The notes beneath the pieces are model-generated. The model saw nothing but the letters and a program-made list of their open reading frames with translations. It did not search any database and was not told the origin of the DNA. This document shows positions 825 through 63,410 of a DNA stretch of 64,000 nt, in pieces. Positions within the stretch are counted from its first letter, which is position 1; each line of letters begins with the position of its first letter. Source of the stretch: an uncultured Anaerolineales bacterium (lineage in GTDB: Bacteria; Chloroflexota; Anaerolineae; Anaerolineales; UBA11858); NCBI GenBank assembly GCA_964539105.1, contig CAZIFI010000003.1, forward strand, positions 39,202 through 103,201, read 5' to 3'. A program made the position numbers and the translations under genes.

Positions 825-859
825 CGCACTTATAATGCTTATCGCATAGAAGAGGGATT

Positions 860-1588: not shown

Positions 1589-1606
1589 ATCGAAAGGACA
1601 CTTACT

Positions 1607-1640
1607 AAACGCGGGCATATTTACCTGCCCGCGTTTTTCG
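1607..1640 (+). terminator. Rho-independent terminator after jag
   Basis: Stem aaacgcgggca / tgcccgcgttt with an 8-nt loop, followed by a TTTTT run. Confidence 0.7.
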
Positions 1641-1773
1641 TTTAAGAAGCACAGAACACGCCTCACCCTGTGTGTTCGGAGGTGCAGTCTGAGAAAAACG
1701 TTAACAGGGACATTGTCCCCCCGTATGCCAGACCCGCCTCGAAACAGGGATGTCTTTCAGGTATAATGCAACC

Positions 1774-2619: not shown

Positions 2620-2623
2620 TCCT

Positions 2624-3409: not shown

Positions 3410-3486
3410 TACAAACGCTCTGACCTGGACAAATGGTCGGATACCCCTTTGGACATCCCGCATTTCAAGACAAGAGATGGTTGACT

Positions 3487-5984: not shown

Positions 5985-6053
5985 ACAAGCTGAGACCCTA
6001 TTTCTTTATATTCCAAAAATCGGAAAACGAACAATCAGACTTAAAAGCAGGGC

Positions 6054-9181: not shown

Positions 9182-9280
9182 GGTCGTAACTCCTGTATTG
9201 AAGGAAATCAAGCAAAGTGATTATAGCACGGAGAGAGTACGTTGTTCTCTAAACATGCCATGTCCCGCACCCCGCACTGA

Positions 9281-10666: not shown

Positions 10667-11256
10667 TCCCAGACCTCCAGGGTGGATATATTCAGGAGGT
10701 ATGCCCCCAGGAACGCCAATCCTATATGATTAACGGCGAGCAATGCCGTCATCAACACCGACGCTTCAACGGTAGCATACAAAATTTCAAACCCGGAAAG
10801 GACGGTCAATAAACCCACGATCAGCCGTGTGGGCTCCACAGCTAATCCTACCTGGATCAAGCCCAACCCAAACAGCAGCAACCCTCCCAGCACCTGCTGG
10901 CGGCTGGCACCGATAAACCACTTCAAAGCTACCGGGAGAAATGATGAGATAGACAATGCCGCCAGCACAGCTAACAAACTCCGGAAAAGCGGGGTGGGTA
11001 TTTTACGCGGCTCTCCAGTTACACGGTGTTCTGACATGTTGAGGTATGTCACCCCCAATACCGCTGCTGACATCCAACCAGCAACGACCTTTACCAGGGC
11101 AATTTCCGGAGGCCAGCTCTGCGAGATCAACAGCGTTACACCCACGTACTGTAAAGCCAATAAACTTATCATCCAGCGCCAATCATTCACCAGCAATAGG
11201 CCCAAAGAGAGAATAAATAGCAGGCTAACGGTCAGAGACGTCAAGACATCCAGCAT
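10663..11256 (-). CDS. Small integral membrane protein (about 5 TM), unknown function
   Basis: 197-aa hydrophobic ORF translationally coupled to the flanking membrane ORFs. Confidence 0.55.
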   Translation of the reverse strand: MLDVLTSLTVSLLFILSLGLLLVNDWRWMISLLALQYVGVTLLISQSWPPEIALVKVVAGWMSAAVLGVTYLNMSEHRVTGEPRKIPTPLFRSLLAVLAALSISSFLPVALKWFIGASRQQVLGGLLLFGLGLIQVGLAVEPTRLIVGLLTVLSGFEILYATVEASVLMTALLAVNHIGLAFLGAYLLNISTLEVWE

Positions 11257-11259
11257 GAT

Positions 11260-12804
11260 TTATCCACCTCCGGATGAAGTCAGGAGGGACAGCAGGAAAA
11301 ACACACCCACCAGAGCCCAGATCAATCCGGCCCTGCCTTCCAATATGTGAAAGGTTCCCATCACAATAGCGCTGAACAATCTTCCCATTTGCAGCACCCT
11401 GTTCGAAATGGATTCAGGGAGACCGGACAGCGAGTTTTTCAGTTGTGGGAACCATACTTCCGGGATCGAGATCCAGTTTATAGCCAGCAGAAAGGGGACA
11501 AAGATAATTGCGGGTAGAAGGAACCGCCATCCCTGATTCCAGAACTGCGCACTGGCCGGAGCCAATCCCTCCAGGAACGAAAACAATATATGAACGGATG
11601 CCAGAAAGATCACACTAGCCATATGCAAGACCAATTCCGGGCGTTTATAGTCGGAGCGGGGTGCATCTGAGCGCATGACATGCCGGAACCCACCGGCGAT
11701 AAACATCCCGAAACCCACTGCCCACACCACACCCCACAACCCCCGGGAAAAAAGAGCAGCACCCGGCCAGAGCGGTGTATACGGCCAGGCAAGTATGCCT
11801 AACCCAAACAAGCCAGCCGCTCCATATCTCAATATGTGATGAGAGGGCAAGAGAAACAATATATTCCCCGACAGCAACGCTGCCAGAGCCCAGCTTATAC
11901 TCACCATCTCCTGTCCATTGACAGCAGCCAGGGCGACGAACCCCAGCCACCCCGCCAACCAGGTATTTCTTCCTGCGGATAGATCCCGGGAAGTCAACCA
12001 CCACGATCCGCTAAAAATCAGTATGATCCCCAGCAGCCCATAAAACGGAGCTTTCCAGGTGTGCGGGACGCCGGAGGCTGCACCCCTGACGATGATCAGC
12101 ATGCTTACAGCGCCGGTTATGGAATGAATCAAAGTCAGTTGCCCGGCCTGAAGCCCGGCATGGTCTGTGGGAGATAATTTGGGCAGGGAAAAAAGATAGC
12201 GAATCCCGGAAGCCAGGATCAACAAACCAGCAATCCGGGGATCGATCACCTGGAAGGTAACCGGCAGGCCCTCAGCAAGGGAAAAATTGTGGGCATAGAC
12301 CACAAGGAAAGGTCCCCATAGCCGGAACGCGAACGAGAAAACAAACTGATCATGTCGTACATCAGGCGAGCGATTTCTAAAATGGAACCCGAACTGGAGC
12401 ACGTCGACCAACACCCAAGAAAAGAGCAGGGTGAGGATATTTCCAGCCAATACTCCCAACAAAGCTGCACACCCTAATCCCAGCACCCACACCAGTTCCC
12501 TGTTTAGCTCAGGAAAGATGACCGCATATGCCAGGATCAAACTCACCACAATCAGGAAAAACAACCAGGACACATGGTCGATGAGCAGCGCTGGCTGCGT
12601 GGTGAATGGACCGCGGGAAGACCAGGGTATGAGGGAGATAGCCATTGGCTGGACTGGCCGTCCTACAAACACCAGGATCCACACCACAAGCGCCCCACCC
12701 CCCAGGGCGTAGGGGGGTAGGACCAGGTCTGACCGGCGCCATGACAACACCCCGGCACTAATCACGATCAGATATAAAACTAAAAGCGCGATGAGGACAA
12801 TCAT
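11260..12804 (-). CDS. Polytopic integral membrane protein (about 14 TM), unknown function
   Basis: 514 aa, rich in W and G, hydrophobic throughout. Its start codon overlaps the folK stop (ATGA). Confidence 0.6.
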   Translation of the reverse strand: MIVLIALLVLYLIVISAGVLSWRRSDLVLPPYALGGGALVVWILVFVGRPVQPMAISLIPWSSRGPFTTQPALLIDHVSWLFFLIVVSLILAYAVIFPELNRELVWVLGLGCAALLGVLAGNILTLLFSWVLVDVLQFGFHFRNRSPDVRHDQFVFSFAFRLWGPFLVVYAHNFSLAEGLPVTFQVIDPRIAGLLILASGIRYLFSLPKLSPTDHAGLQAGQLTLIHSITGAVSMLIIVRGAASGVPHTWKAPFYGLLGIILIFSGSWWLTSRDLSAGRNTWLAGWLGFVALAAVNGQEMVSISWALAALLSGNILFLLPSHHILRYGAAGLFGLGILAWPYTPLWPGAALFSRGLWGVVWAVGFGMFIAGGFRHVMRSDAPRSDYKRPELVLHMASVIFLASVHILFSFLEGLAPASAQFWNQGWRFLLPAIIFVPFLLAINWISIPEVWFPQLKNSLSGLPESISNRVLQMGRLFSAIVMGTFHILEGRAGLIWALVGVFFLLSLLTSSGGG

Positions 12805-13304
12805 GATTCCCGTTCTACGAAAGGCTCAACCCCGTGCTGGTCGACATCCTGGAGCAAATCCGTGACCTTTTTCCCAAGTCCGGGATGCATCAGATCGGGA
12901 GCGATTTCCGCCAGGGGGATCAGCACAAAAGCCCGCTCTGCGATCCGGGGATGGGGAATTTGAAGCATTTCATCCTCATAGGTCCGACTTCCATAAAACA
13001 GGATATCTATATCGATCACCCGGGGGCCATAGCGGAACGTTTCCTCGCGTCCCATATGGTCTTCAATATCTTTCAAATACACCAGGAGTTCCGGGGGAGA
13101 AAGGGTTGTACGCCCCTGAATGACTTGATTCAGGAAGGCGGGTTGATCCTCATATCCCCAGGGCTCCGTCTCATAAATGGTAGAGGTTTTCAGCACGCGA
13201 ACCGGGGGCGGGAGATGCTGGATGGCTCGCTCGAGATACCTCCTTCTATCCCCCATATTCGACCCCAATGCAAGGTACACCTTCACAGCTTCTTTTTCGT
13301 CCAC
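12801..13304 (-). CDS. folK: 2-amino-4-hydroxy-6-hydroxymethyldihydropteridine pyrophosphokinase (HPPK)
   Basis: Motifs VYLALGSNMGDR, YETEPWGYEDQPAFLNQV and DIDILFYG are typical of FolK. Confidence 0.9.
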   Translation of the reverse strand: MDEKEAVKVYLALGSNMGDRRRYLERAIQHLPPPVRVLKTSTIYETEPWGYEDQPAFLNQVIQGRTTLSPPELLVYLKDIEDHMGREETFRYGPRVIDIDILFYGSRTYEDEMLQIPHPRIAERAFVLIPLAEIAPDLMHPGLGKKVTDLLQDVDQHGVEPFVERES

Positions 13305-14835: not shown

Positions 14836-14922
14836 GGAGGGGTCGCATAGTTGGCCTAGTGCGCGCGCCTGGAGAGCGCGTATCCCTTCTGGGGATCGTG
14901 GGTTCGAATCCCACCCCCTCCG
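14836..14922 (+). tRNA. tRNA-Ser (anticodon GGA), class II with a long variable arm
   Basis: 7-bp acceptor stem GGAGGGG/CCCCTCC. T arm GTGGG-TTCGAAT-CCCAC. Anticodon stem CGCGC/GCGCG with loop CTGGAGA. Long variable arm ATCCC-TTCT-GGGAT. G at position 37 is atypical. Confidence 0.78.
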
Positions 14923-15027
14923 CCTCAGGATGACATCGCTCAGCTCGAGCTGGGCGATCCTCATTTTAATTGATCATATGGACCAATAAATAAAACCACA
15001 ATCCTCGTCAGAACTAGGGAGAGAGAC

Positions 15028-17547: not shown

Positions 17548-17650
17548 TAGCTTCGGGTGGGTCCGACGCGGCAGAGACCTATGAACCGTGTCAGGTCCGA
17601 GAGGAAGCAGCACTAAGTGGGATCCTCTGGGTGCCGTCGGTAAGCCTGCC
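17548..17650 (+). ncRNA. ffs: Signal recognition particle RNA (small 4.5S-type SRP RNA)
   Basis: Contains the near-universal domain IV motif GUCAGGUCCGAGAGGAAGCAGCA, matching the E. coli 4.5S GUCAGGUCCGGAAGGAAGCAGC. It lies directly downstream of a consensus promoter. The ends are approximate. Confidence 0.8.
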
Positions 17651-17684
17651 CGAGGCTGTTTCCCTTTGGTTCCCCGTACTTCCT

Positions 17685-29179: not shown

Positions 29180-29653
29180 TCACACGGTAATTTCTTCCGC
29201 GGCTTCAGGGATCTCATACTCCGCGTTTCGCAGACCTTTCTTGATATCAATCAGCGACTTGCGGCCGATCCCTTTCACATCAAGCATGGCCTTTTCACCA
29301 CCTTCCAGCACCTCAAGAATATCTGCCACGGTCTCTATGTCCGCGTCATTGAGCGCATTTGTAACCCGGGTGCCCAGGTCGAGGGTCTCTATCGAGACAT
29401 CAGCCGACTTCTTCTTCTCTTTGCGCTCCTGTTTCTCTTTTTGAATTTCCTCATGGACCTTCATCTTCTTGTAGAAGCGATCCACCTGACCTTCAGTGTC
29501 CACAATACGCTGTTCACCCGTAAAGAAGGGGTGGCATTCTGAGCACACGTCAGTCCGAATGGTTTCCTGGGTCGAGCCCGTTGTCCATGTATTGCCACAG
29601 GCGCAGATGACCTTGGCTTCTGGATAGTATGTAGGATGAATTTCCTCTTTCAT
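29180..29653 (-). CDS. rpmE: 50S ribosomal protein L31 (type A, Zn-ribbon) with a C-terminal RpoA alpha-CTD-like HhH extension
   Basis: The N-terminal ~65 aa are MKEEIHPTYY...CACG...CSECHPFFTG, a canonical L31. The C-terminal ~90 aa read LDLGTRVTNALNDADIETVADILEV...LDVKGIGRKSLIDIKKGL. This aligns with the RNA polymerase alpha C-terminal domain ([24 protein letters not shown]...[14 protein letters not shown]). Confidence 0.8.
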   Translation of the reverse strand: MKEEIHPTYYPEAKVICACGNTWTTGSTQETIRTDVCSECHPFFTGEQRIVDTEGQVDRFYKKMKVHEEIQKEKQERKEKKKSADVSIETLDLGTRVTNALNDADIETVADILEVLEGGEKAMLDVKGIGRKSLIDIKKGLRNAEYEIPEAAEEITV

Positions 29654-29669
29654 AGTCCTTCCTATGTCA

Positions 29670-29927
29670 TTAATCAACCGGGATCACGTTAACCTGTTTC
29701 TTGCCGCCCCGGATGGTGCGGTAAGAAACCACGCCGTCAGCTGTGGCAAATAATGTGTCGTCCCCTCCCCGCCCGACGTTGAGACCCGGGTGGATGGGTG
29801 TGCCGCGTTGGCGTACCAGGATGTGGCCTGAGGTCACCTGCTGCCCGGCATATTTCTTGACACCTAATCGCTTTGATTCACTATCACGTCCGTTGCGGGT
29901 TGAGCCGCCGCCTTTTTTGTGAGCCAT
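29670..29927 (-). CDS. rpmA: 50S ribosomal protein L27
   Basis: [24 protein letters not shown] is the canonical L27 N-terminus. There is no Prp-cleaved extension. Confidence 0.95.
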
Positions 29928-38751: not shown

Positions 38752-39651
38752 TCAGGCATACTTTTTCAGTACAGTCCGAACCTGCGACAGATACCCCCCA
38801 CCAAACAGGTTGACATGGTTCAGGAGATGATACAAATTGTAAACCGGGAATCGGTCCCGATATCCCGCTTCCAAGGATGCGTGTTCTTCATAGCCCTCAT
38901 AGAACGCGGGCGGAAAACCCCCGAACAAGCTTGTCATCGCTAACTCAGCCTCAGCCCAACCATAATATGCGGCAGGGTCGATGATGGCAGGACTGCCATC
39001 CTGATCGCTGATAGCATTCCCACTCCACAAGTCCCCATGAATCAGGGAAGGGTGCTGACCGGGAACCAGAGATTCCAGACGGTGGGCCAGCCGCTCCACA
39101 GCCTGCACATCCGCCCGGGACAATTTTCCGGTTTCCCGGCCCAACCGGGCCTGATACAACAAGCGGTGCTGGGCGAAAAAAACGAAACCATCATCCTCCC
39201 AGGCATTGATTTGAGGGGTGCTTCCGATGTAATTATTGTGGGGAAACCCGAATCGGTCATTCGTGTGTTGATGGAGACAGGCCAGCTCTTTCCCGAACCT
39301 GATCCAATATCCTTCTTTTTTCGGGGCGGGACATAGGTTTTCCAGAAGGATAAACCTTTCTTCGGCATGATACACCCGGGGCACGGTCGGGCCATCATCC
39401 ACCGCCAATTTTTGCAACCCTTCCGCCTCCCTGGGAAACATATCAGGCGGTGCGTTGCGGTTGGTCTTCACGAAGAATGACCGGCCTTGTTCGGTTTCAA
39501 TCACAGCCCCGTCATTGATGCAGCCGCCGCCAACAGGATTTACTGACTGGATAGCACCATAGCCGTGGTCTTCGCACCAAGTCTGGACAGCCCTATATTT
39601 CCTCTCCACCTTCCAAGGCCTCCAACAATTCACGGGTCGAACGTTCCACAA
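38752..39651 (-). CDS. Fructosamine/ketosamine-3-kinase family protein
   Basis: APH-like kinase motifs including HGDLWSGN. Full-length similarity to the bacterial FN3K (YniA) family. The annotated start overlaps the upstream gene by 59 nt, so the true start may be internal. Confidence 0.8.
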   Translation of the reverse strand: MWNVRPVNCWRPWKVERKYRAVQTWCEDHGYGAIQSVNPVGGGCINDGAVIETEQGRSFFVKTNRNAPPDMFPREAEGLQKLAVDDGPTVPRVYHAEERFILLENLCPAPKKEGYWIRFGKELACLHQHTNDRFGFPHNNYIGSTPQINAWEDDGFVFFAQHRLLYQARLGRETGKLSRADVQAVERLAHRLESLVPGQHPSLIHGDLWSGNAISDQDGSPAIIDPAAYYGWAEAELAMTSLFGGFPPAFYEGYEEHASLEAGYRDRFPVYNLYHLLNHVNLFGGGYLSQVRTVLKKYA

Positions 39652-40069
39652 TATCGAACACCCGATGGAACCCTTTCATACCGCCGTAGTAAGGATCTGG
39701 CACACCGTCATCCGGCTGGGCCTGGGGATCGAACTCCCGCATCAATCTGATTTTGTTTGCGTCCTGGGGCGAATCAGCCAGGCGCTCCAGCGCTCGGCGA
39801 TTATCTGTATCCATGGCAATAATCAAATCAAACCTTTCAAAGTCCTCTTTTTGAAATTGCCGGGCACTGCCGCTGTATGTCAATCCCCGTTCCCTGGCCA
39901 CTTTCCTCATCCGGGAGTCAGGTTTTTCCCCCACATGATAGGCTGAGGTCCCGGCGGAATCCACATCATACTTTTCCCCCACCCCATTTTTTTCCGCCAC
40001 ATGCCGGAACATATTTTCAGCCAGGGGGCTGCGGACGATGTTTCCCAAACAGACAAAACAAATCTTCAT
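39593..40069 (-). CDS. Low-molecular-weight protein-tyrosine phosphatase
   Basis: P-loop CLGNIVRS (CX5R) at the N-terminus and a DPYY motif near the C-terminus. Confidence 0.85.
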
Positions 40070-40233
40070 CAGTATACCTCCACGGGATATATACTACCAT
40101 CAACAGGGGGTTCATGTCACCCTTTCCCCGCCCCAAGGTCTTGCCAGCCAGACCCCCATCCGCTACACTGAAAAGAGAAAACATGGCTGCCGCTGTTTTC
40201 CTCATCCCTCACATGGAAGGAGAGTCAAAAACG

Positions 40234-41128
40234 ATGGATGTCATCCCAACGGGGTCTTTATTTCTGGACCGTTCCCTGGGTACAGGGGGACTTCCCAGAG
40301 GATGGATCACGGAACTGTATGGACCTCCCTCTTCGGGAAAAACAACCCTGGCTCTGTATATCCTGGCTGAAGCGCAGCACATTGGCCTGACAGCGGCCTT
40401 CCTGGACATCGAAAGCGGCCTCGACCCCGCTTACGCCGAACGCTGCGGGGTCGTCAAACCCGGACCGGGCCCTGATCGCATCTCCCGAAAGCGGCACCAA
40501 GGCCCTCACCCTGTGCCGTTTGCTGCTCGAATCAGGCGATGTCCATCTGGTGGTGCTGGACTCCCTGGCAGGGTTGGCATCCAACCGGGAACTGGAAATC
40601 GGGTTCTATCCCGATCGCTATGGAGAGCTCAACCCCTTGTTGGCCTCCCATCTTAGAAAGATCGACCGGATTTGCCGGTTAACAGGCGGAACCTTACTGT
40701 GTACCAATCAACTCCGCACCCGGACCAGGAAGGGCTACGGTACCCCGGAAACAACGCCCGGTGGGTTGACCATCAAATTCCACGCAGCAGTCAGAATTGC
40801 CCTGAAGGTAATCTGCCCCCTGGGAAGGAAAGGTCATTACCACGGAGTACGGATTAACGCTACCGTAAACAAGAACCGCTTTCACCCCAAAGAGCATAGC
40901 GCACAGATCGAGATCGTGTATAATAAAGGTATAAATAAGGAAAGGGAATTAATTTCCCTGGGCAAAGAAGTTAAATTGATTACTAAACATGGCTCCATGT
41001 ATCAGTATCGGGGCCAAAACCTTGGACAGGGACAACAAGCTGCCTATCAGACACTGCAGGTGAATGAACATGTGGCACAAGCTCTGGAAAGAGACCTGCG
41101 GGCAATGATACTTCCCCCCATACGCTAG
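40234..41128 (+). pseudogene. recA: recA: divergent, N-terminally truncated and interrupted by a +1 frameshift near 40450-40458
   Basis: Frame 1 (40234-40458) encodes [38 protein letters not shown]...[20 protein letters not shown], which corresponds to RecA residues ~35-110. Frame 2, from about 40457 to 41128, continues ..[36 protein letters not shown]...NQLRTRTRKGYGTPETTPGG...KFHAAVRIALK.. to a normal C-terminus. Removing one A from CAAACC at 40455-40457 restores a single ORF. No ORF upstream encodes the canonical N-terminal ~33-aa helix. An AAGGAGAG Shine-Dalgarno sits 10 nt before ATG 40234. Confidence 0.7.
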
Positions 41129-41395
41129 ACCCTGTCAGGACACGGCCGGAAACTGAACGACCACGGCCGACCGCGGTGTAACATAATATATTGATCTCAA
41201 AACCACATTTGTGGGTTAGTAAAAATAGCGCTTTGTTAAATTCGACTACTGCATTTAGAAGATTAGGATAACCATATAGTTTGGATTTAATCGCTTCCTG
41301 ATAAACGCGTATCTCAGCGCATTCCATCAGGTGTTAAAGAGATCAATAGCCATGTATACAGCCGCGGTCCTGCAAGGAAAAGCCGCGGCTGTAAT

Positions 41396-42025
41396 ATGTT
41401 TAAGATTACCAACCTGGAACCACAAAAACACGACCCGCAGCGCCTGAACGTGTATCTGGATGGAGAATTTGCTTTTGGCGTGGCGCGCGCTGTCGCTCCC
41501 TGGCTGCAGGTGGGGATGGAACTCAGCAGGAAAAAAATCGATAAGCTAAAAGCCCAGGACGATGAGGAAAAAGCCTACCAGAGGGCATTAAATTTTCTCA
41601 GCTATCGGGACCGTTCTTGTGCAGAAGTCGAGCGCAATCTCCGCAAACACGATGCCCCTGAAACAGCAATTGAAGCGGTCATCCAGCGCCTTCTGGACAA
41701 CAAGCTCTTGGACGACCTTGATTTTGCCCGGAAGTGGGTTGAAAACAGAGCCGCTTTTCATCCCCGGGGGCGTCGGGCCCTGGCCTCGGAGCTGAGGCAG
41801 AAAGGCGTCTCACGCCAGGTAATCGATAAAGTGCTTGAAGATGTCGATGAGCGCAAAATGGCGTATAAAGTGGCTCAAAATAAACTGCGCCGCATAAAGA
41901 ATCTTGACCGATCTGACTTCAATAAAAAGCTGTACGGTTACCTCTCACGTCGGGGGTTTCACTACGGGATCTGCAAAGAAACCGCAGATAGGGTTTGGGC
42001 CGAGCTGCATGACAACCCGCAGTGA
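41396..42025 (+). CDS. recX: Regulatory protein RecX
   Basis: Three-repeat helical RecX fold (LSYRDRSCAEVERNLRKH..., ALASELRQKG...). Positioned downstream of recA, as is common. Confidence 0.85.
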   Translation: MFKITNLEPQKHDPQRLNVYLDGEFAFGVARAVAPWLQVGMELSRKKIDKLKAQDDEEKAYQRALNFLSYRDRSCAEVERNLRKHDAPETAIEAVIQRLLDNKLLDDLDFARKWVENRAAFHPRGRRALASELRQKGVSRQVIDKVLEDVDERKMAYKVAQNKLRRIKNLDRSDFNKKLYGYLSRRGFHYGICKETADRVWAELHDNPQ

Positions 42026-42114
42026 ATGAGATCACTCCCGGCAAGGATGGAATTATTTTTGTAGGACATAACAACTCACGGCTGCAAGCCGATTAGTGAA
42101 AACGAGGTCTGACC

Positions 42115-43641
42115 ATGATAAATAATCCGCTCTTCATCAGTCTAAGTGCCCTCGTTTTAGGACTGGCAATAGGGTACTTTGTAAAACATTACATCATTAC
42201 AAAACAGAACGAAAGAAAACAGAATCAAGCCAATCGCATTCTCAGTGAGGCCGAAAAGAAATCAGCCAGGATCATCAAAGAAGCCCAGGAACGGGCCCTG
42301 GAAATCACACAATCGGCCGAAAATGAGTCTTCCCGGAGAAGGATGGAGCTCAACCGGTATGAAGAACGCCTGCAAAGCCGCAGCGATCAACTGGACCGCA
42401 GGGCGGAAAAATTGGAGGACCGGGAACATGCCATCAGCAAGCGCCAGAGTTCCCTGGACAAAAAGGCCAATGAGATCCAGAAAAAATACGATCAAGCCTC
42501 CCAGGAACTGGAACGCATCAGCCAGCTCACCAAGGAACAAGCCCGTGATATCCTCTTCAAGCGTGTGGAGGAAGAGGCCCGGCACGATATGTCCCGTATC
42601 GTGCGGGAAATCGAAGCTGAAGCCCGTGAGGAAGGGGAAAGAAAAGCCCGGAAGCTGATCGCAGATGCCGTGCAGCGCGTCGCGTCCGACCACGTAGATG
42701 AAGTGACATCTTCCACGGTTTCCTTGCCCTCGGATGACATGAAAGGGCGCATCATCGGCCGCAACGGACGCAATATAAGAGCCTTTGAAAAGGCCGCTGG
42801 CGTGGATGTCATCGTGGATGACACCCCGGAAGCGGTGACCATCTCCTGTTTTGACTCCGTGCGGCGGGAAATTGCCACCCAGGCTATGAAAAAATTGGTA
42901 TTGGATGGACGGATACACCCTGCGCACATCGAACAAATCATTGAAAAGGAAAAAGAGAATATCGAGGAAATCATCCGCGAGGCTGGCGAACAGGCAGCCT
43001 TCGAGGCCGGCGTTCCCGGCCTCCACACCGAAATCACGAAAAAAATGGGACGCCTGAAATTCCGCACATCGTACGGTCAGAACCAGCTTGCTCACGCGGT
43101 GGAAACCGCCCAGTTGGCATCTGTTCTGGCCTCGGAAATAGGCGCGGATATCGAAACATCCAAAGCCGGAGGGCTGCTGCACGACCTGGGAAAGGCCATG
43201 GACCATAACGTAGAAGGGACGCACGCCCAGATCGGGGCTGAATTTGCAGAACGCCACGGGGTCCCCCAGAAAGTAGTCAACGCCATCGCTTCCCACCACC
43301 ATGAAGTTGAACAACAGAGCGTGGAAGCGGTCATTGTAGAAGCCGCTGATGCCATCTCCGGCGCTCGGCCTGGAGCCCGTCGTGAGAGCCTGGAACAATA
43401 CCTGAAACGGGTCCGGGCCCTGGAAGACGTCGCCAATTCTTTCGATGGCGTAAAAAAGTCTTATGCCCTGCAGGCCGGCCGTGAAGTGCGCATCTTTGTC
43501 AAACCCCAAAAGATTGATGATCTGGCAGCATCGCGGTTAGCGCGGGAGATTTCTAAAAATATCGAAGAAACCATGCAGTATCCCGGAAAAATCAAGGTCA
43601 CCGTCATCCGCGAGACGCGGGCTATTGACTACGCGAAATAA
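42115..43641 (+). CDS. rny: Ribonuclease Y
   Basis: N-terminal TM, a coiled-coil region, a KH domain (GRIIGRNGRNIRAFE) and an HD domain (LLHDLGKA...H). 508 aa. Confidence 0.95.
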   Translation: MINNPLFISLSALVLGLAIGYFVKHYIITKQNERKQNQANRILSEAEKKSARIIKEAQERALEITQSAENESSRRRMELNRYEERLQSRSDQLDRRAEKLEDREHAISKRQSSLDKKANEIQKKYDQASQELERISQLTKEQARDILFKRVEEEARHDMSRIVREIEAEAREEGERKARKLIADAVQRVASDHVDEVTSSTVSLPSDDMKGRIIGRNGRNIRAFEKAAGVDVIVDDTPEAVTISCFDSVRREIATQAMKKLVLDGRIHPAHIEQIIEKEKENIEEIIREAGEQAAFEAGVPGLHTEITKKMGRLKFRTSYGQNQLAHAVETAQLASVLASEIGADIETSKAGGLLHDLGKAMDHNVEGTHAQIGAEFAERHGVPQKVVNAIASHHHEVEQQSVEAVIVEAADAISGARPGARRESLEQYLKRVRALEDVANSFDGVKKSYALQAGREVRIFVKPQKIDDLAASRLAREISKNIEETMQYPGKIKVTVIRETRAIDYAK

Positions 43642-43678
43642 ACCCGGCCCCTCAGCCCTGAACCACGGACGACGACTT

Positions 43679-43715
43679 CCCTCCCGGAAGGATGTACCCG
43701 GGAGGGTTCCGTTTT
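43679..43715 (+). terminator. Rho-independent terminator after rny
   Basis: Stem ccctcccgg / ccgggaggg with a 9-10 nt loop, followed by TTCCGTTTT. Confidence 0.75.
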
Positions 43716-43731
43716 GTACACAACCCAGAGA

Positions 43732-44376
43732 TCAAATCAGAAAAGGATTTCGCTCGCGTTCCCGTCCCACAGTCGTGGGAGGACCATGTCCGCTGTGGAC
43801 CTGGGTGTGATCCGGAAGAGGCAGGATCTGGGTCTGGATGGATTGCAAGAGCCTTTGATGGTTCCCCCCCGGCAAATCCGTCCGGCCAATACCGCCCCGG
43901 AATAAGACATCGCCACTGAACAGCACCCTCTCTTCCCCACAATAAAACATGACATGTCCCGGGGTGTGGCCGGGGGCATAGCGGACCTCGAAACGGTACC
44001 CCCCGACGCGTAGTTCCTGGCCGTGCTGGAAGGATACATTCGGCCTGGGGCCGGGATCAATATCCATCCCAAAACTGGGCGCTCCCCCTTTCCGCTCCCA
44101 TAAAACCATATCATCGTCATGCAGGCCAATTTGGAAGGATGATCCCCCTTCCTCGTTGATCAGATCCACCAGCTCCGCTACCCCTCCCAGGTGGTCAAAA
44201 TGAGCGTGTGTCAGCCAGATGGCCTGGATCTCCCACCCGGTTTCCTGAGCCGTGCTGGCTATGTACGCCCCATCCCAGGCAGGATCAATCACCACCGCTG
44301 CCTCCTGCTCGGTATCAGCCACGAGATATGTATTGGTCTGAACGGGTCCCAGGGTAAACATTTGGATCTCAAGCAT
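43732..44376 (-). CDS. MBL-fold metallo-hydrolase (glyoxalase II-like)
   Basis: THAHFDHLGG metal-binding motif with downstream His and Asp ligands. Start set at MLEIQMF. Confidence 0.8.
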   Translation of the reverse strand: MLEIQMFTLGPVQTNTYLVADTEQEAAVVIDPAWDGAYIASTAQETGWEIQAIWLTHAHFDHLGGVAELVDLINEEGGSSFQIGLHDDDMVLWERKGGAPSFGMDIDPGPRPNVSFQHGQELRVGGYRFEVRYAPGHTPGHVMFYCGEERVLFSGDVLFRGGIGRTDLPGGNHQRLLQSIQTQILPLPDHTQVHSGHGPPTTVGRERERNPFLI

Positions 44377-44498
44377 AGGTATCCTCAATCTAATGGCTTA
44401 ATTCGGTTCTCTATTTCTAGAACTGTATTTTATCACTTGGGACGACAGGATGGTCATGATAAACTTTCCATTAAGTTCTCACGACCCAGGGAGACCCC

Positions 44499-45884
44499 AT
44501 GACCGAACATCCTCCAGAACCGTTCCGCATCAAAATGGTCGAACCCATCTCTCTGATTGACCGCGAGCAGCGGGATAAGGCGCTCCAAGAGGTGGGATAT
44601 AACGTGTTTGGACTGAGGTCTGACCAGATCTTCATCGATCTACTGACCGATTCTGGAACGGGGGCCATGAGTCAGGATCAATGGTCCGGGATGATGAAAG
44701 GGGATGAATCCTACGCTGGCGCCCGTTCCTATCACCGCTTAGCATCTGTGATCGACGATATTTTCGGCTTTAAGTATTTCTTGCCCACCCATCAGGGTCG
44801 GGCTGCGGAAAATATTCTGTGCAGCGTTTTATTGAAGCGGGATGATTGTATCCCTTCGAACATGCACTTTGATACTACCGAAGGCAACATCAGAGCCAGA
44901 GGAGGCAGGCCGACAAACCTGGTCATCGATCAGGCCTTTGATACCACTTCCCGGCATCCATTCAAGGGCAACATGGACCCTGAAAAACTGAAAGCATTTA
45001 TCCGGGAAAAAGGTCCAGAAAAGATCCCCTTTGGCATGCTGACTATCACCAACAATGCCGGGGGAGGACAACCCGTCTCCCTCAAAAACATCCATGCCGT
45101 GTCCGACATCTACCGCAGGCATAACATCCCTTTCTTCATCGATGCCTGTCGTTTCGCGGAGAACGTGTATTTCATCAAGCTGCGAGAAGAAGGCTACCAG
45201 GATCACAGTACCCTGGAAATTGCCCGGGAAATCTTTTCTGTCGCAGATGGTGCCACCATGAGCGCCAAAAAGGACGGTCTGGCCAATATAGGCGGATTTC
45301 TAGCCATGAATGACCAGGCCCTTTACCAACAGGCCGGCAATGAACTCATCCTCAGGGAAGGGTTCCTGACGTACGGCGGTCTATCCGGCCGAGATCTGGA
45401 CGCCATGGCAGTCGGCCTGCAGGAAGCTCTTGCTGAATCCTATCTTTCCTACCGGCTGGAACAGACCGCCTACCTCGCTGCGGAACTCAAGGAGAACAGG
45501 ATTCCCATCATTGAACCTCCCGGGGGGCATGCCGTGTATATCGACGCTGGCCAACTGCTGCCCCATATTCCCCAACATCAATTTCCAGGCCAGGCTCTGG
45601 TGGTTGCCCTTTATCTGGAGGGGGGAGTTCGCGCTGTCGAGTTAGGGTCTGTGGCCTTTGCCCACTCCGATCCGGACAGCGGTGAGATGGTTTACCCGGA
45701 GATGGAACTTGTCCGACTAGCCCTCCCCCGTCGAACATATACACAGAGCCATCTGGATTTTGTGGTGGATGTTCTGGCAAGGATCACAGCCCGGAAAGAC
45801 GAGCTAACGGGATATGAGATTACTTACCAACCGGAGTTGATGCGGCATTTTACAGCCCGTTTCCAGCCGCTGGGATCATCCTGA
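44499..45884 (+). CDS. Tryptophanase / tyrosine phenol-lyase family beta-eliminating lyase
   Basis: Full-length match to the TnaA/TPL family. Conserved N-terminus FRIKMVEP, a PLP-Lys region (SAKKDGLANIGG) and a length of 461 aa. Confidence 0.85.
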   Translation: MTEHPPEPFRIKMVEPISLIDREQRDKALQEVGYNVFGLRSDQIFIDLLTDSGTGAMSQDQWSGMMKGDESYAGARSYHRLASVIDDIFGFKYFLPTHQGRAAENILCSVLLKRDDCIPSNMHFDTTEGNIRARGGRPTNLVIDQAFDTTSRHPFKGNMDPEKLKAFIREKGPEKIPFGMLTITNNAGGGQPVSLKNIHAVSDIYRRHNIPFFIDACRFAENVYFIKLREEGYQDHSTLEIAREIFSVADGATMSAKKDGLANIGGFLAMNDQALYQQAGNELILREGFLTYGGLSGRDLDAMAVGLQEALAESYLSYRLEQTAYLAAELKENRIPIIEPPGGHAVYIDAGQLLPHIPQHQFPGQALVVALYLEGGVRAVELGSVAFAHSDPDSGEMVYPEMELVRLALPRRTYTQSHLDFVVDVLARITARKDELTGYEITYQPELMRHFTARFQPLGSS

Positions 45885-45889
45885 CGGGG

Positions 45890-46975
45890 TTAATCCAGGA
45901 CTTCAAGGTTGACCATCCTCTTCCGCCTGGGTGTGAAATAAACCCGGTACATTCTTCCGTTTTCAAAGGCTTCGTAGGCCTTTTTGTTTACTCTGAATTC
46001 CTTCCCCCCAATCACATAGTAATATTTCGTACGGGTTGAGCTGTCGGTATCGGTGTTCTGGCGGTATGTCCGCAACCCGCGGCCCTCCCAGGATTCAACA
46101 CTTCTGGAAAACAGATCTTGTAGGGATGTAATCAAGAGATAAATCCCCCCTACCCCTGCTCCAACCACGGCTGCCATGATAATCAGTGTGCCCGTATTAA
46201 CTCGCTTGACAAATTCCAGCACGTTGTGGCTGCCCGATATAGCCCGCGAAACTTCATTGTCCCGGGTCAGGGCGAAATAGCTGACCCCCAAGGTAAACAG
46301 CATCAGGAAAGCGCCCAGAAGCACCGGTTCCAGCAATTTACTGGTCTGGCTTTTGCTGAGAATTCCCCTCCTGTTCTCATGCAGCGCCTCTTTATCTAAC
46401 GAATTGGCGTCCGCCAGGACATCATTTAACCCTGTGATCGCTTCCAGTTCAGGGTTGATGCTCAGGGCTTCAGCAGACAGCACAAAGCCGCTTTCCTGTA
46501 AATAGTAAAAGCGATAGGTCACACCCGGTTCTAACCCCGATCTGTTGTCAAAGGGCAGTTTGAGGTTTTTCCCCGGGACAGAAATCCGGTATGCTGAACC
46601 CTGGAAAACCACAACACCGGCATCAGAGCGGATGTCATGTCGGGTCAAATCTCGCTGCAGGGCTTCTTTTTTCTGCAAAAACGCCCGTCGCTGATAAAGG
46701 ATCAACCCCCCGAATACGACCACACCCAACAGGAAAAAAAGAAGCACATTCCAAGGAGAAACCTCCAGGGAAAGCAGGCCAGCTGCCAGAAAAAATATCC
46801 CCCAGCCCATCACTTGCAAGGTTCGTAAACGATTCGTCCGTTTCAAAAAAGTTTGGAAACTGGCCGTTATTTTTTGTAATACGGCTTTCTGCTCCCCGGT
46901 CACCCGCCCATCCTGGTTTGCTTCCAGGTAAGCAGGGTGGTCAAAACGGTAGTCTTGAAATAATTCAGAAAACAT
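45890..46975 (-). CDS. Hypothetical membrane protein (about 4 TM)
   Basis: ORF with two pairs of hydrophobic helices and no recognisable domain. Start uncertain: it could be MFSELFQ at 46975 or 47125. Confidence 0.45.
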   Translation of the reverse strand: MFSELFQDYRFDHPAYLEANQDGRVTGEQKAVLQKITASFQTFLKRTNRLRTLQVMGWGIFFLAAGLLSLEVSPWNVLLFFLLGVVVFGGLILYQRRAFLQKKEALQRDLTRHDIRSDAGVVVFQGSAYRISVPGKNLKLPFDNRSGLEPGVTYRFYYLQESGFVLSAEALSINPELEAITGLNDVLADANSLDKEALHENRRGILSKSQTSKLLEPVLLGAFLMLFTLGVSYFALTRDNEVSRAISGSHNVLEFVKRVNTGTLIIMAAVVGAGVGGIYLLITSLQDLFSRSVESWEGRGLRTYRQNTDTDSSTRTKYYYVIGGKEFRVNKKAYEAFENGRMYRVYFTPRRKRMVNLEVLD

Positions 46976-47156
46976 ATCCTTCCCTCCTGCAGGACGATCG
47001 CGTCTCCCACCTGTACCATAGCCCTCCCGTGCTGGATTATAGCAATCTTTATGATGAAAACCTATAGGGTACTGAATCACCCTTTTTAATGACCCCCCTG
47101 GTAAGATCAAACTGCGGTCCGCCAATCCGGAAAAACAAAAACCGCCCGAAGGCGGT

Positions 47157-47240
47157 CAATGGAAATGCGCTGGGCGGGAATCGAACCCGCACGCCTGTGA
47201 AGGCATATGGCCCTCAACCATACCTGTCTGCCAGTTCCAG
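47157..47240 (-). tRNA. tRNA-Leu (anticodon GAG), class II
   Basis: The reverse complement reads GCGCTGG-TG-CTGGAACTGGCAG-A-CAGGTATGG-TTGAGGG-CCATATG-(variable arm GCCTTCACAGGCGT)-GCGGG-TTCGATT-CCCGC-CCAGCGC-A. The T-loop is GTTCGATTC, the anticodon loop is TTGAGGG and position 37 is G. Confidence 0.82.
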
Positions 47241-47373
47241 CACCAGCGCGTGTGAAATATTGACAGCTCGTCAAGGGGGATTTTCCTGTCCCGCTGCGAG
47301 CAGTGGTATTATAATCTCCCACACAAGGATGTCAAGAGAAGCAGGCCCGGGGACATGATCGAGGAGAGTCATT

Positions 47374-59355: not shown

Positions 59356-60063
59356 ATGGGAAAGAGACTGCAAAAAATTTTGGCCCGATCCGGTTATGGG
59401 TCCCGCAGAACCTGTGAAGAGATGATCGAAAATAAGCGGGTCAAGGTCAACGGGCAAGTCGCTGCGCTGGGCACAAAGGCGGATCGCCAGCAAGATGATA
59501 TTACCGTGGATGGCCAGCCTATCCCCCGCCCAGAGCCGCTGAAATATATCGCCCTCCACAAACCCCCCGGGGTGCTGTCCACCGTGAAATCACCCGGTGA
59601 TCGACCAACAGTGCGGGATTATGTACACGTTCACGGTCGCTTATATCCGGTGGGACGTCTGGATGTGGGCAGCGAGGGCTTAATCCTGATGACAAATGAT
59701 GGTAAACTAACCAACCGCCTGACCCATCCTCGCTACGAGCACGAAAAGGAATACCGGGTATATGTCACAGGGCATCCCACGCAGGACCAACTGAAAAAGT
59801 GGCGGGATGGCGTCCATCTCCAGGACGGGTACCGCACCCAGCCTGCAGGGGTTGAGGTTGAATCCCGGGACAAGGCTGGAGCCTGGCTGCGCGTCATTCT
59901 CCGGGAAGGAAAAAAACGCCAGATTCGCCGTATGGGAGACCAGACATGTCTGCCGGTGGAACGTATCATCCGGGTCAGGATCGCTGACCTCACCCTGGGC
60001 GACCTCCAGGCAGGTGAATGGCGGCACCTCACGGAACAAGAAGTCCAGAAGTTAAAGTCATGA
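59356..60063 (+). CDS. rluB: Pseudouridine synthase, RluB/RsuA family
   Basis: N-terminal S4 domain (RLQKILARSGYGSRR) and the catalytic motif GRLDVGSEGLILMTNDG. Confidence 0.85.
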   Translation: MGKRLQKILARSGYGSRRTCEEMIENKRVKVNGQVAALGTKADRQQDDITVDGQPIPRPEPLKYIALHKPPGVLSTVKSPGDRPTVRDYVHVHGRLYPVGRLDVGSEGLILMTNDGKLTNRLTHPRYEHEKEYRVYVTGHPTQDQLKKWRDGVHLQDGYRTQPAGVEVESRDKAGAWLRVILREGKKRQIRRMGDQTCLPVERIIRVRIADLTLGDLQAGEWRHLTEQEVQKLKS

Positions 60064-63000
60064 AAGAGAATAAGGAAACAGCAAACATGGAAAAAGAATC
60101 CTCCCAGGAAAAAAAGTCGTGGCTTGAAAAACCCGTCATTTCCGATCTGAGCATTTCATGGGAAAGTCTACTCTTTGGTGTGATCCTGCTTCTGGCTGTA
60201 TTGTCCCGGTTCTATGATGTCGGAGCCCGTGTCATCAGCCACGATGAAACCTCCCATGTTTATTATGCCTGGCGCTTATTCAAGGGGTGGGGTTATGCTC
60301 ACGATCCCATCACCCACGGACCGCTGCAGTTTCATGCTCTGGCTCTGACCTATTTTATCTTCGGTGCCAGCGATTTCACGGCCCGCATTCCGACCATCCT
60401 GGCCGGGATCGCCACCCTGGCTTTTCTGTGGAAATACCGGCGTTATCTGGGGCGCTGGGGAACGCTGGCTGCGGCCCTGATGACCCTGATTTCCCCTTTT
60501 ATGCTCTTTTACAGCCGGTACGTGCGCAATGAAGCGTATGTAGCGCTCTTCGGCGTGGTCACCATCTGGGCCCTATTACGCTATCTGGAAACCCGGTCCC
60601 CCCGATTCCTGTACTGGCTGACAGCAGCCACCGTGCTGCACTTTACAGCCAAGGAAACCGCTTTCATTTACACGGCTCAGGCCATGGTGTTGTTGGGCTT
60701 GATCTTCGTCACCCGCGTTACCCAACGGAAATGGCAGGACAATAACCTGCGGTCCATCTTCCTGACAGCCCTCATTTTGGCTGCCCTGTTGATCACGATT
60801 GGCTTTGTGATGCAAACGGTGTCAGCCCCTGTCTCGGAGGCAGAAGAGGCAGCATCCATCATGCCCCGCAGCACACTGATCTTCCTGGGGCTGAGTCTGA
60901 TCAGCCTGATCTTTGCCCTCTTTACCGCCATCCGGGGATATACCTGGGAAAAATTGACAGCCATGCCATCTTTTAGTGCCATGCTGCTGCTGGGAACCCT
61001 GGTTCTGCCCCAGCTGGCTGCCTTTCCGGTGCGGATGATCGGCTGGAACCCGCTGGATTACAGCCAGACAGGGATGCTGCGCACAGGCGGATTTGTCATT
61101 TTTCTGACCCTCATCGCGGCCGGCATCGGCTACGCCTGGAATTTCCGGCTGTGGTTGACCTGCATGGCCATCTTCTATATCCCCTTTACGGTCCTGTACA
61201 CCACCGTATTTACCAATGGGACAGGGTTTTTCACCGGGCTGGTCGGCTCCCTGGGGTACTGGTTAGAGCAGCAGGGAGTGGAACGGGGCAGCCAGCCCTG
61301 GTATTACTACTGGCTGATCCAGATCCCGATATATGAATATCTACCCGCCCTGGGCAGCATGGCCGCCCTGATTGGAATGGGCATAAAACAATTGTTTTCC
61401 CCGGATCGATACCTAAAGAAGCATGAACTGCAGCAGGAAGATGAGGAATTGCCCTCAGATGAAGAACATCATGGTGCTCCGGTCTTCGCTGTGCTGGCAT
61501 TCTGGGTCTTGACCAGCCTCATTGCCTATCCCATCGCCGGGGAAAAAATGCCCTGGCTCACCGTGCACATTGCCTGGCCCATGATCTTACTATCTGGCTG
61601 GGGATTCCAGAAATGGATCAATCACTTTGACCCGGTTCAATTTCGCGAAAAGCGGGGATGGGTGGTTGCCATCCTCAGCCTGCTGTTTATCATCAGCCTC
61701 AGCAGGGTCCTCGGCACATTGCTTTCCCCAGATCAGCCCTTCCAGGGTCAACAGTTGAGCCAGCTCAGGCAGACCGGCACATTCTTTACCACCCTGATCT
61801 TTACCCTAGCTGCGGGGGCGTTCCTCTTCAACCTCATCAAGGGCTGGCGTCTCAAACAATTTGCCCTGACAGGAAGCCTGACCATATTTCTGATCCTGGT
61901 CGTCTTGACCACTCACACCTCCGTTCAGGCTTCATACATAAACTATGATAGCCCGGAGGAATATCTGGTTTATGCCCACAGCGCGCGGGGAGTCAAGGTG
62001 GCCCTGGATCAGATCGAAGAAGTCTCGGAACGGCTCACCGGCGGCCTGTCCGCCACCGTGGCCTTTGATAATGAAACCACGTACCCGTACTGGTGGTATC
62101 TCCGAGATTACCCCAACCAGAAATACTATGCCGAAAACCCCACCCGCGAACAGCGCGAGGCTCCCCTGATCCTGGTCGGGAATAACAATTACGGCAAAAT
62201 CGAACCTGTGGTTGGAAATGCGTATTACCAATTCGAATATAACCGCATCGTGTGGCCCAACCAGGACTATTACAACCTGACCTGGGAGCGGATCTGGAAC
62301 GCGGTCCGCAACCCCGAGATGCGGGAAGCCATTTTCAATATCTGGCTCAACCGGGACTACACCAAATATGCCAACCTTAAAAACCAGGATATGAGCCTGG
62401 AAAACTGGAGTCCCGTCGATGAAATGCGGCTCTATGTCCGCAAAGACGTGGCTGCCAGGGTATGGAACTACGGCTCCTTTGAACAGGGGCTGGATGAGCT
62501 TTCCGCAGATCCCTATGAGGGCAAAGAGCAAACCCTTACGGCGGATTTTGTCATCAACCAGCCTGCCCTCAATAACCCCCGCAATCTGGCCCTGGCCCCG
62601 GACGGCTCCCTGTATGCTCTGGATACCGGGAACCACCAGGTGCTGCATGTTTCACCTTCGGGTGAACTCCTAAATTCCTGGGGTTCCTTCAGCGGAACAG
62701 AAAACGAGACTATCCCCCCCGGGACCTTTAACGAACCGTGGGGAATTGATGTCGGACCACAAGGCAATGTGTTTGTGGCGGACACCTGGAATCACCGCAT
62801 TCAGAAATTCACACCGGATGGGGAATACCTGCTCAGCTGGGGCCATTTCGGTCAACGCGAAACACCGGACGCTTTCTGGGGGCCCAGAGACGTGGCCGTG
62901 GACCCCAATGGTCATGTCTATGTCACGGATACCGGGAACAAACGAATTGCCATTTTCGATGGTGAGGGGAATTTTGTGGACGAGTTCGGAGAAGCCGGTC

Positions 63001-63410
63001 TGGGCGAAGGACAGTTCGATGAACCGGTGGGATTGGCCGTGGACGGTAGCGGCAACCTGTACGTGGCCGACACCTGGAACCAGCGGGTGCAGGTCTTCGC
63101 CCCTGACGAGCAGGGGGTCGCCCGCAATTTCATGACCAGCTGGGAGATCGCCGGCTGGTACGGGCAATCTCTGGATAATAAACCCTACCTGGCTGCAGCC
63201 GGGGACCGGGTGTATGTCACAGATCCGGAAGGGACCCGGGTTGTGGTCTTTTCATCCCAGGGAGAAATCCAATACTTCTGGGGCACATTCGGGACCGGTC
63301 AGGACCAGTTCAACCTGCCCACAGGAATTGCAGCAAGCCTGGAGGGTGGTGTGTGGGTCAGCGACACCAAAAACAACCGCTTGATGCATTTCACCTTGCC
63401 CACAGAATAA
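60060..63410 (+). CDS. Fusion protein: GT-C fold (PMT/ArnT-like, family 39/83) glycosyltransferase plus C-terminal NHL-repeat beta-propeller
   Basis: Start ATG overlaps the rluB stop (ATGA). The N-terminal about 700 aa are polytopic, with the PMT_2/ArnT-like first-loop region HDETSHVYYAWRL...DPITHGPL and many TM segments. The C-terminal about 330 aa contain at least 6 NHL repeats (VADTWNHRIQKF, YVTDTGNKRIAIF, YVADTWNQRVQVF, VSDTKNNRLMHF). Confidence 0.75.
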   Translation: MKENKETANMEKESSQEKKSWLEKPVISDLSISWESLLFGVILLLAVLSRFYDVGARVISHDETSHVYYAWRLFKGWGYAHDPITHGPLQFHALALTYFIFGASDFTARIPTILAGIATLAFLWKYRRYLGRWGTLAAALMTLISPFMLFYSRYVRNEAYVALFGVVTIWALLRYLETRSPRFLYWLTAATVLHFTAKETAFIYTAQAMVLLGLIFVTRVTQRKWQDNNLRSIFLTALILAALLITIGFVMQTVSAPVSEAEEAASIMPRSTLIFLGLSLISLIFALFTAIRGYTWEKLTAMPSFSAMLLLGTLVLPQLAAFPVRMIGWNPLDYSQTGMLRTGGFVIFLTLIAAGIGYAWNFRLWLTCMAIFYIPFTVLYTTVFTNGTGFFTGLVGSLGYWLEQQGVERGSQPWYYYWLIQIPIYEYLPALGSMAALIGMGIKQLFSPDRYLKKHELQQEDEELPSDEEHHGAPVFAVLAFWVLTSLIAYPIAGEKMPWLTVHIAWPMILLSGWGFQKWINHFDPVQFREKRGWVVAILSLLFIISLSRVLGTLLSPDQPFQGQQLSQLRQTGTFFTTLIFTLAAGAFLFNLIKGWRLKQFALTGSLTIFLILVVLTTHTSVQASYINYDSPEEYLVYAHSARGVKVALDQIEEVSERLTGGLSATVAFDNETTYPYWWYLRDYPNQKYYAENPTREQREAPLILVGNNNYGKIEPVVGNAYYQFEYNRIVWPNQDYYNLTWERIWNAVRNPEMREAIFNIWLNRDYTKYANLKNQDMSLENWSPVDEMRLYVRKDVAARVWNYGSFEQGLDELSADPYEGKEQTLTADFVINQPALNNPRNLALAPDGSLYALDTGNHQVLHVSPSGELLNSWGSFSGTENETIPPGTFNEPWGIDVGPQGNVFVADTWNHRIQKFTPDGEYLLSWGHFGQRETPDAFWGPRDVAVDPNGHVYVTDTGNKRIAIFDGEGNFVDEFGEAGLGEGQFDEPVGLAVDGSGNLYVADTWNQRVQVFAPDEQGVARNFMTSWEIAGWYGQSLDNKPYLAAAGDRVYVTDPEGTRVVVFSSQGEIQYFWGTFGTGQDQFNLPTGIAASLEGGVWVSDTKNNRLMHFTLPTE

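Follow-up and report, generated by a model that had tools for sequence, protein, structure and literature searches.

A short recA at the recA-recX-rny locus of an Anaerolineales clade, interrupted by a 4-nt insertion in one genome

RecA is among the most conserved bacterial proteins and serves as a phylogenetic marker, and its N-terminal helix is the textbook polymerization element. We analysed the recA locus in a 64,000 nt stretch of DNA (hereafter the window, whose positions are used throughout) from an uncultured Anaerolineales bacterium. The recA gene in the window lacks the coding region for the N-terminal helix, and its reading frame is broken by a 4-nt insertion. The locus is composed of the following features:

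39593-40069, minus strand: low-molecular-weight (LMW) phosphotyrosine phosphatase gene (Pfam LMWPc, 9.7e-45), the divergent upstream neighbour in all short-recA loci
40141-40169, plus strand: promoter-like site TTGCCA-17 nt-TACACT from a consensus scan, a putative promoter
40216-40225, plus strand: Shine-Dalgarno-like GGAAGGAGAG, read directly, 8 nt 5′ of the start codon
40234-40452, plus strand: 5′ part of the short recA, native codons 1-73 (MDVIPTGSL...AERCGV), holding Walker A and the catalytic Glu (E. coli E96)
40453-40456, plus strand: 4-nt insertion GTCA, its placement ambiguous within 40450-40458, causing a +1 frame change
40457-41128, plus strand: 3′ part of the short recA, native codons 74-296 (...ILPPIR, stop), holding Walker B, loops L1 and L2 and the C-terminal domain
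41189-41391, plus strand: conserved AT-rich element, probably structured, in the recA-recX spacer
41396-42025, plus strand: recX, intact, 209 amino acids (aa), with domains RecX_HTH1, RecX_HTH2 and RecX_HTH3
42115-43641, plus strand: rny (RNase Y), intact, 508 aa, completing the conserved recA-recX-rny triplet

The RecA-like frame opens at the ATG at 40234, the MDVIPTGSL start given in an earlier note on this DNA, and the Shine-Dalgarno-like GGAAGGAGAG in place ahead of it supports this codon as the true start. Both promoter-like hexamers are identical in the related loci L001 and L005. A GAAC-N4-GTTC sequence (LexA/Cheo box) was not found upstream of recA, where a CAAC-N5-GTTC is present with the wrong spacing. 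Codon 73 is GTC (40450-40452), and the RecA-like frame resumes at 40457 and stops at 41126-41128. Downstream lies recX, as the earlier note had it, with its three RecX domains and then rny. The phosphatase gene is conserved beside the short recA in L001, L005, L006, L008, L009 and L011.

Architecture of the short RecA and its clade

The protein encoded by the repaired frame matches the Pfam RecA family (PF00154) at 1.1e-55, over model positions 31-262 only, and its residues 238-291 match RecA_C (PF21096) at 3e-12. Against TIGR02012 it scores 249.7 bits, below the 325.3 cutoff, and the match covers model positions 34-320 of 321, which leaves helix A and strand 0 uncovered. A phmmer search of RecA chains in the Protein Data Bank (PDB) aligned residues 2-292 without a gap to E. 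coli residues 39-329 (Met-numbered). Because this alignment is gapless, residue 1 can be placed at mature E. coli residue ~37, rather than at the ~35 that was first estimated. The short protein therefore has no counterpart of helix A, strand 0 or the acidic C-terminal tail, in keeping with the earlier claim that the N-terminal segment is missing. Its homology to RecA is unambiguous by sequence.

Compared with canonical RecA (TIGR02012; E. coli P0A7G6; PDB 2REB and 3CMW), the core and C-terminal domain are alike at ~40% identity, and Walker A and B, E96, Q194, K248, PETT(P)GG and the recA-recX-rny position are held in common. In contrast, residues 1-36 and the acidic C-terminal tail are absent from the short form. 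The gene thus has the ATPase core residues, C-terminal domain and position of a RecA, and it lacks helix A and strand 0, a score at the equivalog level and the conserved L1, L2 and site-II residues. A core-only architecture without the N-terminal domain is also found in archaeal RadB, phage Sak4 and ImuA, which are RecA-fold ATPases lacking an N-terminal polymerization or DNA-binding domain and are regarded as accessory proteins, not as primary recombinases. Unlike these proteins, the short RecA is a bacterial RecA derivative that carries a RecA C-terminal domain and occupies the primary recA locus. Its scores with the RadB model (46.1 bits, cutoff 172.4) and the ImuA model (21.5 bits, cutoff 150) fall far below threshold, and neither imuB nor dnaE2 is present in the gene neighbourhood.

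The missing N-terminus was not found upstream. A tblastn search with a canonical 346 aa RecA gave no match to an N-terminal domain in the upstream DNA, and in-frame upstream translations of 15 loci contain no N-terminal helix. The 164-nt upstream spacer carries in-frame stops and indels of lengths not divisible by three in relatives, and every short-recA locus has one or the other just 5′ of the start. These results bear out the statement that no upstream frame encodes the segment. One subgroup of 311 aa proteins begins near E. coli residue 28. Likewise as stated in the earlier note, tblastn found no second recA-like gene in the window; it also found none in the 6-10 kb on either side of 20 related loci.

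A search for relatives among 5.8 billion proteins recovered intact short RecAs of 294-311 aa, comprising P0001 (84% identity), P0002 and P0003 (80%) and P0005-P0016 (48-57%); P0121, from a conspecific, is a further intact homolog. About 19 related lineages encode an intact short RecA at the same locus, all without helix A and strand 0, and those that are named are metagenome-assembled genomes (MAGs) of Anaerolineales or Chloroflexota. A scan of GTDB species representatives added seven carriers, again all Anaerolineales or Chloroflexota MAGs. The conserved gene order is phosphatase (minus strand), short recA, recX, rny, a metallo-beta-lactamase (MBL) fold gene and a beta-eliminating lyase gene. 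In a neighbour-joining tree, 16 short proteins form a single clade relative to 105 canonical RecAs, and mean identity is 56% within the short family versus 62% among canonical RecAs from many phyla. Since the canonical Chloroflexota RecAs P0017 (346 aa) and P0337 (338 aa) are also encoded in a recA-recX-rny triplet, the short gene is a positional ortholog of recA; the suggestion that it is a degenerate paralog does not fit its position, which is where canonical Chloroflexota recA sits.

Exhaustive profile searching of 1.84 billion representatives also gave RecA-like proteins of ~295-320 aa that begin at (I/L)PTGS, in at least 15 additional clusters at 50% identity (for example P0134, P0135, P0141, P0143, P0187, P0196, P0199, P0231, P0236, P0247 and P0269). 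Several of these clusters have badly eroded L2 loops and some lack PETTxGG; some of the truncations could be mis-called starts. The RecAs recovered by a broader profile search were mainly canonical ones of other lineages, and the one checked, P0337, is at recA-recX-rny. One protein, P0132, is 643 aa long and consists of two degenerate RecA-like modules in tandem, whose Walker A motifs are non-canonical.

Selection on the short gene was assessed from the ratio of nonsynonymous to synonymous substitution rates (dN/dS), computed by the Nei-Gojobori method among five close genomes with a recA dS of ~0.3-0.6. The short recA gave a dN/dS of 0.15-0.23, and its neighbours gave the following values:

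recX: 0.06-0.10
rny: 0.02-0.03
phosphatase gene: 0.08-0.13
MBL-fold gene: 0.11-0.16
amylase gene: 0.09
PPDK gene: 0.04

Relative to L009, identity is 55% for RecA, 70% for RecX and 86% for RNase Y, and across the clade the short RecA is always the least conserved and fastest-evolving gene of the locus. Its rate is ~5-10 times that of neighbouring housekeeping genes, a difference from canonical RecA. Taken together, the dN/dS values and the clade-wide identities point to purifying selection that is strongly relaxed or redirected. The short RecA is an ATPase still under selection. The truncation and loop divergence had been viewed as possible damage; both are conserved in a clade of intact genes with a dN/dS of ~0.2, and the short form is very probably a conserved, selected trait of the clade and not damage to this genome.

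To describe the sequence changes, we examined the 16 short members at the 118 positions where conservation among the 105 canonical RecAs reaches 90% or more. The short family keeps 64 of these near-invariant positions and has changed the other 54. Retained residues include K72, T74, E96, D144, Q194, R196, K216, R222, K248, N249 and the PETT-P-GG of L2, among which K72, E96, D144 and Q194 are invariant in 16/16 members; F217 is kept in most. Changed residues in the first part of the protein are R60 (W/E/V), E68 (P), H97 (N), A98 (G), E123, R134, G157 and G160. These are followed by A168 (N), M171 (L), F191 (C, invariant), K198 (R), G200 (K/R) and M202 (G), and then by R227, K232, K250 (R/T), P254, F255 and F260. 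G157, G160, G200 and R227 are altered in most or all members, and R169 is kept in only 8/16, being Pro in the subclade of the window protein. At site II, the gapless alignment places N/T opposite R243/K245 in the window protein and Q/E in P0006. Loop L1 and half of loop L2 are altered in the family, so that the divergence of L1 and L2 reported earlier is real and is accompanied by change at many other near-invariant positions. The roles that we assign to K72, E96, Q194, K248/K250, L1 (157-164), L2 (195-209) and site II are presumed from RecA structural work.

A separate observation concerns cysteines. E. coli positions 182 and 191 (C146 and C155 of P0121) are Cys in 16/16 short members, while canonical RecAs have I/V/L at position 182 and an invariant Phe at 191. 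A third Cys, C71 of P0121, is invariant within the short family.

Several of these changes fall at sites of known effect. In E. coli, strand exchange is abolished by R60C (recA56) and by G160D (recA1) (PMC6472873). The main protomer interface is formed by helix A (D3-F21), strand 0 (I26-R28) and strand 3 (L114-Q118) (PMC6237804), and in strand 3 of the short family S117 is Ala in 14/16 members and Q118 is variable. Because these changes stand beside the loss of the N-terminus, both halves of the interface have drifted. The engineered delta33RecA (Mikawa 1995, as described in PMC6237804) likewise has no N-terminal polymerization segment, and S117 and Q118, naturally altered in the short family, are mutated in a non-polymerizing RecA (Shinohara et al. 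2018). An N-terminally truncated RecA carrying C116M/S117V/Q118R is inactive as a monomer, and an engineered non-filament RecA dimer makes homologous joints (PMC6237804). These N-truncated proteins are laboratory constructs whose self-assembly is reduced or abolished; in contrast, the short family is natural, is selected and carries many further substitutions. Judged by its residues, the short RecA would most likely have lost filament formation and classical strand exchange.

The insertion and a second inactivated gene

The reading frame switches within GTCGTCAAACCCGGAC, which begins at 40450. The earlier note had placed the switch near 40450-40460 and had argued that removal of one A restores a continuous RecA-like open reading frame (ORF). 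Both points hold, the restored ORF being 297 aa; the A-run, however, is at 40456-40458 and not at 40455-40457, and the true lesion is 4 nt. This was evident from L008, a conspecific contig (8,408 bp, Logan run SRR7048227) that aligns to window positions 38784-47195 at 99.76% identity with 16 mismatches and one gap. The sole gap in the 8,412-column alignment is the recA insertion, where the window has GGGGTC[GTCA]AACCC and L008 has GGGGTCAACCC (in wider view, GGGGTC[GTCA]AACCCGG versus GGGGTCAACCCGG). The four bases are likewise missing from L001 and L005. A single-A homopolymer slip was rejected as a full description, since the conspecific differs by four bases.

L008 encodes the intact 296 aa protein P0121, a cluster mate of P0004, the fragment annotated in the window. 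The two recA genes differ otherwise by two substitutions, at 40438 (Glu/Lys) and 40600 (synonymous), a density like that of the flanks, and no secondary lesion beyond the insertion was found in the window recA. With a 99.76%-identical strain free of the insertion and no further lesions, the inactivation, if real, is very recent. As assembled, the 5′ frame reaches a stop at 40654-40656 and would give 140 aa, comprising 73 native and 67 aberrant residues. The 3′ product would be at best 192-202 aa, and the public annotation has only 192 aa from a GTG at 40550 (P0004). The insertion should abolish function because it parts Walker A from Walker B and Q194.

The lesion stands alone in the window. 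Of its ~58 ORFs, ~50 were checked for Pfam domain coverage and among these recA alone is split; the other ORFs tile densely without comparable gaps. A generally error-prone assembly was rejected, as each suspicious pair of overlapping ORFs proved to be separate full-length Pfam domains. We consider it likely that the insertion is biological.

A second short-recA pseudogene occurs in L025 (JAWODY010000032.1, positions 6001-6890; Anaerolineales bacterium BLK5-2.bin.74). Compared with the 96%-identical L016, the L025 recA has two 1-nt deletions, one 6-nt deletion and two stops in the ancestral frame, one of them from CAA to TAA, and its nine neighbouring genes are intact. For this pair of loci, dN/dS is 0.37 for recA and 0.068 for recX. 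Since gene-specific loss recurs, it is more credible that the window recA is truly knocked out, and at least two independent inactivations suggest that the short recA is dispensable. The earlier note had raised pseudogenization as a hallmark of genome decay. The frameshift does fit a genuine, very recent inactivation at the strain level, given the intact conspecific gene, the non-homopolymer site and L025, but decay of the genome is not supported, as the neighbouring genes are all intact and under purifying selection.

Recurrent loss of recA through small indels in close lineages has a parallel in the symbionts of Calyptogena clams, in which recA was inactivated repeatedly and independently by indels of a few bases, with recX adjacent (PMC3202245). 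Those endosymbionts have reduced genomes and are losing a canonical recA of 344 aa in the course of genome reduction (PMC3202245). In contrast, the neighbourhood of the short recA is intact, dense and constrained, the broken gene was already atypical, and there is no sign of genome reduction.

The recA-recX spacer and other features of the window

The recA-recX spacer is 267 nt long (41129-41395), and its GC content over 41181-41350 is 35%, compared with 53% for the window. It is 83-85% identical to the spacers of relatives whose flanking genes show a dS of 0.5-0.8. Folding of eight sequences with RNAalifold predicts three elements. The first is an invariant 10-bp closing helix whose strands, TATTGATCTC and GAGATCAATA, lie ~150 nt apart; the second is a CCAC/GTGG hairpin; and the third is a terminal hairpin (CAGCCGCGG...CCGCGGCTG) that ends 4 nt 5′ of the recX ATG and has one compensatory pair, C-G to U-A. 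In the alignment, 95.5% of cells are paired, versus ~40% in slid controls. No Rfam family matches the element even at E<=1, only one copy occurs in the window, and canonical recA-recX loci do not have it. A leader RNA of recX is one possible identity, and an inverted repeat bound by protein is another.

Elsewhere in the window we observed the following:

72-4362: yidC-jag-...-parA-parB at the window start, which suggests an origin-proximal region
6054-7934, minus strand: selB (selenocysteine elongation factor)
8003-12804, minus strand: four consecutive same-strand ORFs of 402, 461, 197 and 514 aa with no Pfam match at 1e-5, directly downstream of HPPK (folK; 12801-13304, same strand)
14836-14924: tRNA-Ser(GGA)
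17555-17654: small signal recognition particle (SRP) RNA
29180-29677, minus strand: 165 aa ORF joining a ribosomal protein L31 domain (residues 9-71) to an RNA polymerase alpha C-terminal-domain-like segment (residues 83-150), adjoining the L27 and L21 genes
47166-47249: tRNA-Leu(GAG)
60018-63410, plus strand: 1130 aa protein with an N-terminal PMT_2 glycosyltransferase-like membrane domain and C-terminal NHL beta-propeller repeats

Explanations and implications

The explanation that we favour, and regard as probable, is that the gene encodes a dispensable, degenerate RecA derivative newly inactivated in this genome. At the ancestral recA-recX-rny locus of an Anaerolineales clade, recA has been shortened to a derivative of 294-311 aa. 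Helix A and strand 0, which make up the main protomer interface, are gone from this derivative, as is the acidic C-terminal tail, and the acceptor strand, most basic residues of site II, L1, half of L2, R60 and G160 are altered. With K72, E96, D144, Q194, K248, PETTPGG and the C-terminal domain kept, it remains a selected ATPase under markedly relaxed constraint. The 4-nt insertion after codon 73 would be a very recent event in this genome that abolished function.

Several points weigh against this explanation. A dN/dS of ~0.2 is not neutral, and ‘degenerate’ may understate a new function. The loss of filament formation is argued by analogy with E. coli mutants, and delta33RecA still multimerizes at high concentration (PMC6237804). 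An AlphaFold model built from a 15-sequence family alignment reached moderate confidence, with a predicted local distance difference test (pLDDT) score of 66. Constraint on recX where the short recA is dead hints at another RecA target. With regard to the lesion, an in-frame duplication of GTC together with one additional A would also describe the four bases. A single nucleotide polymorphism (SNP; 40438) lies only 15 nt upstream of the insertion, and at this strain-variable site an error in the consensus or the assembly could have produced the four extra bases.

One alternative, to which we give an even chance, is that the short protein is an accessory or regulatory RecA-like protein and that a canonical full-length recA, arising by duplication or transfer, resides elsewhere in the genome. 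This alternative is compatible with the explanation that we favour; it concerns the genomic background, against which loss of the short copy would be harmless. RecA is nearly universal in free-living bacteria, and an accessory role would agree with the relaxed constraint, the recurrent inactivation and the many more divergent N-truncated clusters, which resemble a paralog family. The low recX ratio in the L025 pair (0.068) is also easiest to understand if RecX acts on another RecA. However, the short gene is at the ancestral position, as in two other Chloroflexota lineages, such that no duplication is needed, and neither the window nor the flanks of the 20 loci contain a second recA. Moreover, the strand 3 surface that would accept the N-terminal domain of a partner has itself diverged.

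It is also conceivable, although we think it unlikely, that the short protein is the sole RecA of the clade and recombines or repairs DNA through a non-canonical assembly, by core-core or ATP-mediated contacts or as a dimer. Positional orthology is in its favour, as are the retention of the trans-acting residues K248, F217 (in most members) and R222 together with all ATPase residues, and purifying selection across a clade deep enough for RNase Y to fall to 77% identity. The engineered non-filament dimer that forms homologous joints (PMC6237804) offers a precedent. Such activity is difficult to reconcile with the loss of R227, R243 and K245, the substitution of R60, G160 and G200, the lack of conservation of R169, the two independent knock-outs and an evolution faster than that of every neighbour.

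We likewise doubt that the frameshift is an artefact, in which case the organism would have an intact short recA of 296-297 aa and the extra bases within 40453-40458 would derive from mixed-strain metagenome assembly or polishing. The sequence is apparently a metagenome-assembled contig, the conspecific contig carries the intact frame, the SNP at 40438 marks a strain-variable spot and recA has accumulated no secondary lesions, all of which an artefact would account for. Nevertheless, a 4-nt non-homopolymer insertion is atypical of read error, it is the one gap in 8.4 kb shared with L008 in a 64-kb window with no other split gene, and an independent, gene-specific inactivation exists in L025. 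Finally, a programmed +1 ribosomal frameshift or other recoding could in principle join the two frames, which together do encode a full RecA-like protein, but this is effectively refuted by the intact single-frame orthologs in the conspecific and all relatives, where the shift site is absent, and by the lack of any conserved slippery or stimulatory element at a site that is itself the insertion.

The frameshift is of local interest only, as a null of the short recA in one strain or one assembly. Of wider significance is a lineage that has long kept an ancestral recA without its polymerization element and with substitutions at positions known from E. coli null alleles. Such a lineage would be a natural experiment on the function of the RecA core without classical filaments, or alternatively would be evidence that free-living bacteria can do without RecA-mediated recombination. 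A literature search found no paper on N-terminally truncated RecA in Anaerolineae. Because the short proteins score below the TIGR02012 cutoff, pipelines for genome completeness and marker genes will wrongly count recA as missing or partial. The choice between an accessory RecA-like protein and a free-living clade that lacks canonical RecA turns on whether these genomes hold another recA of the canonical kind. We advance only tentatively the latter view, that of a free-living Anaerolineales clade whose sole RecA descendant is a non-polymerizing ATPase without site II, retained for another or a lesser role, that can be lost, and which is possibly part of a wider set of truncated proteins.

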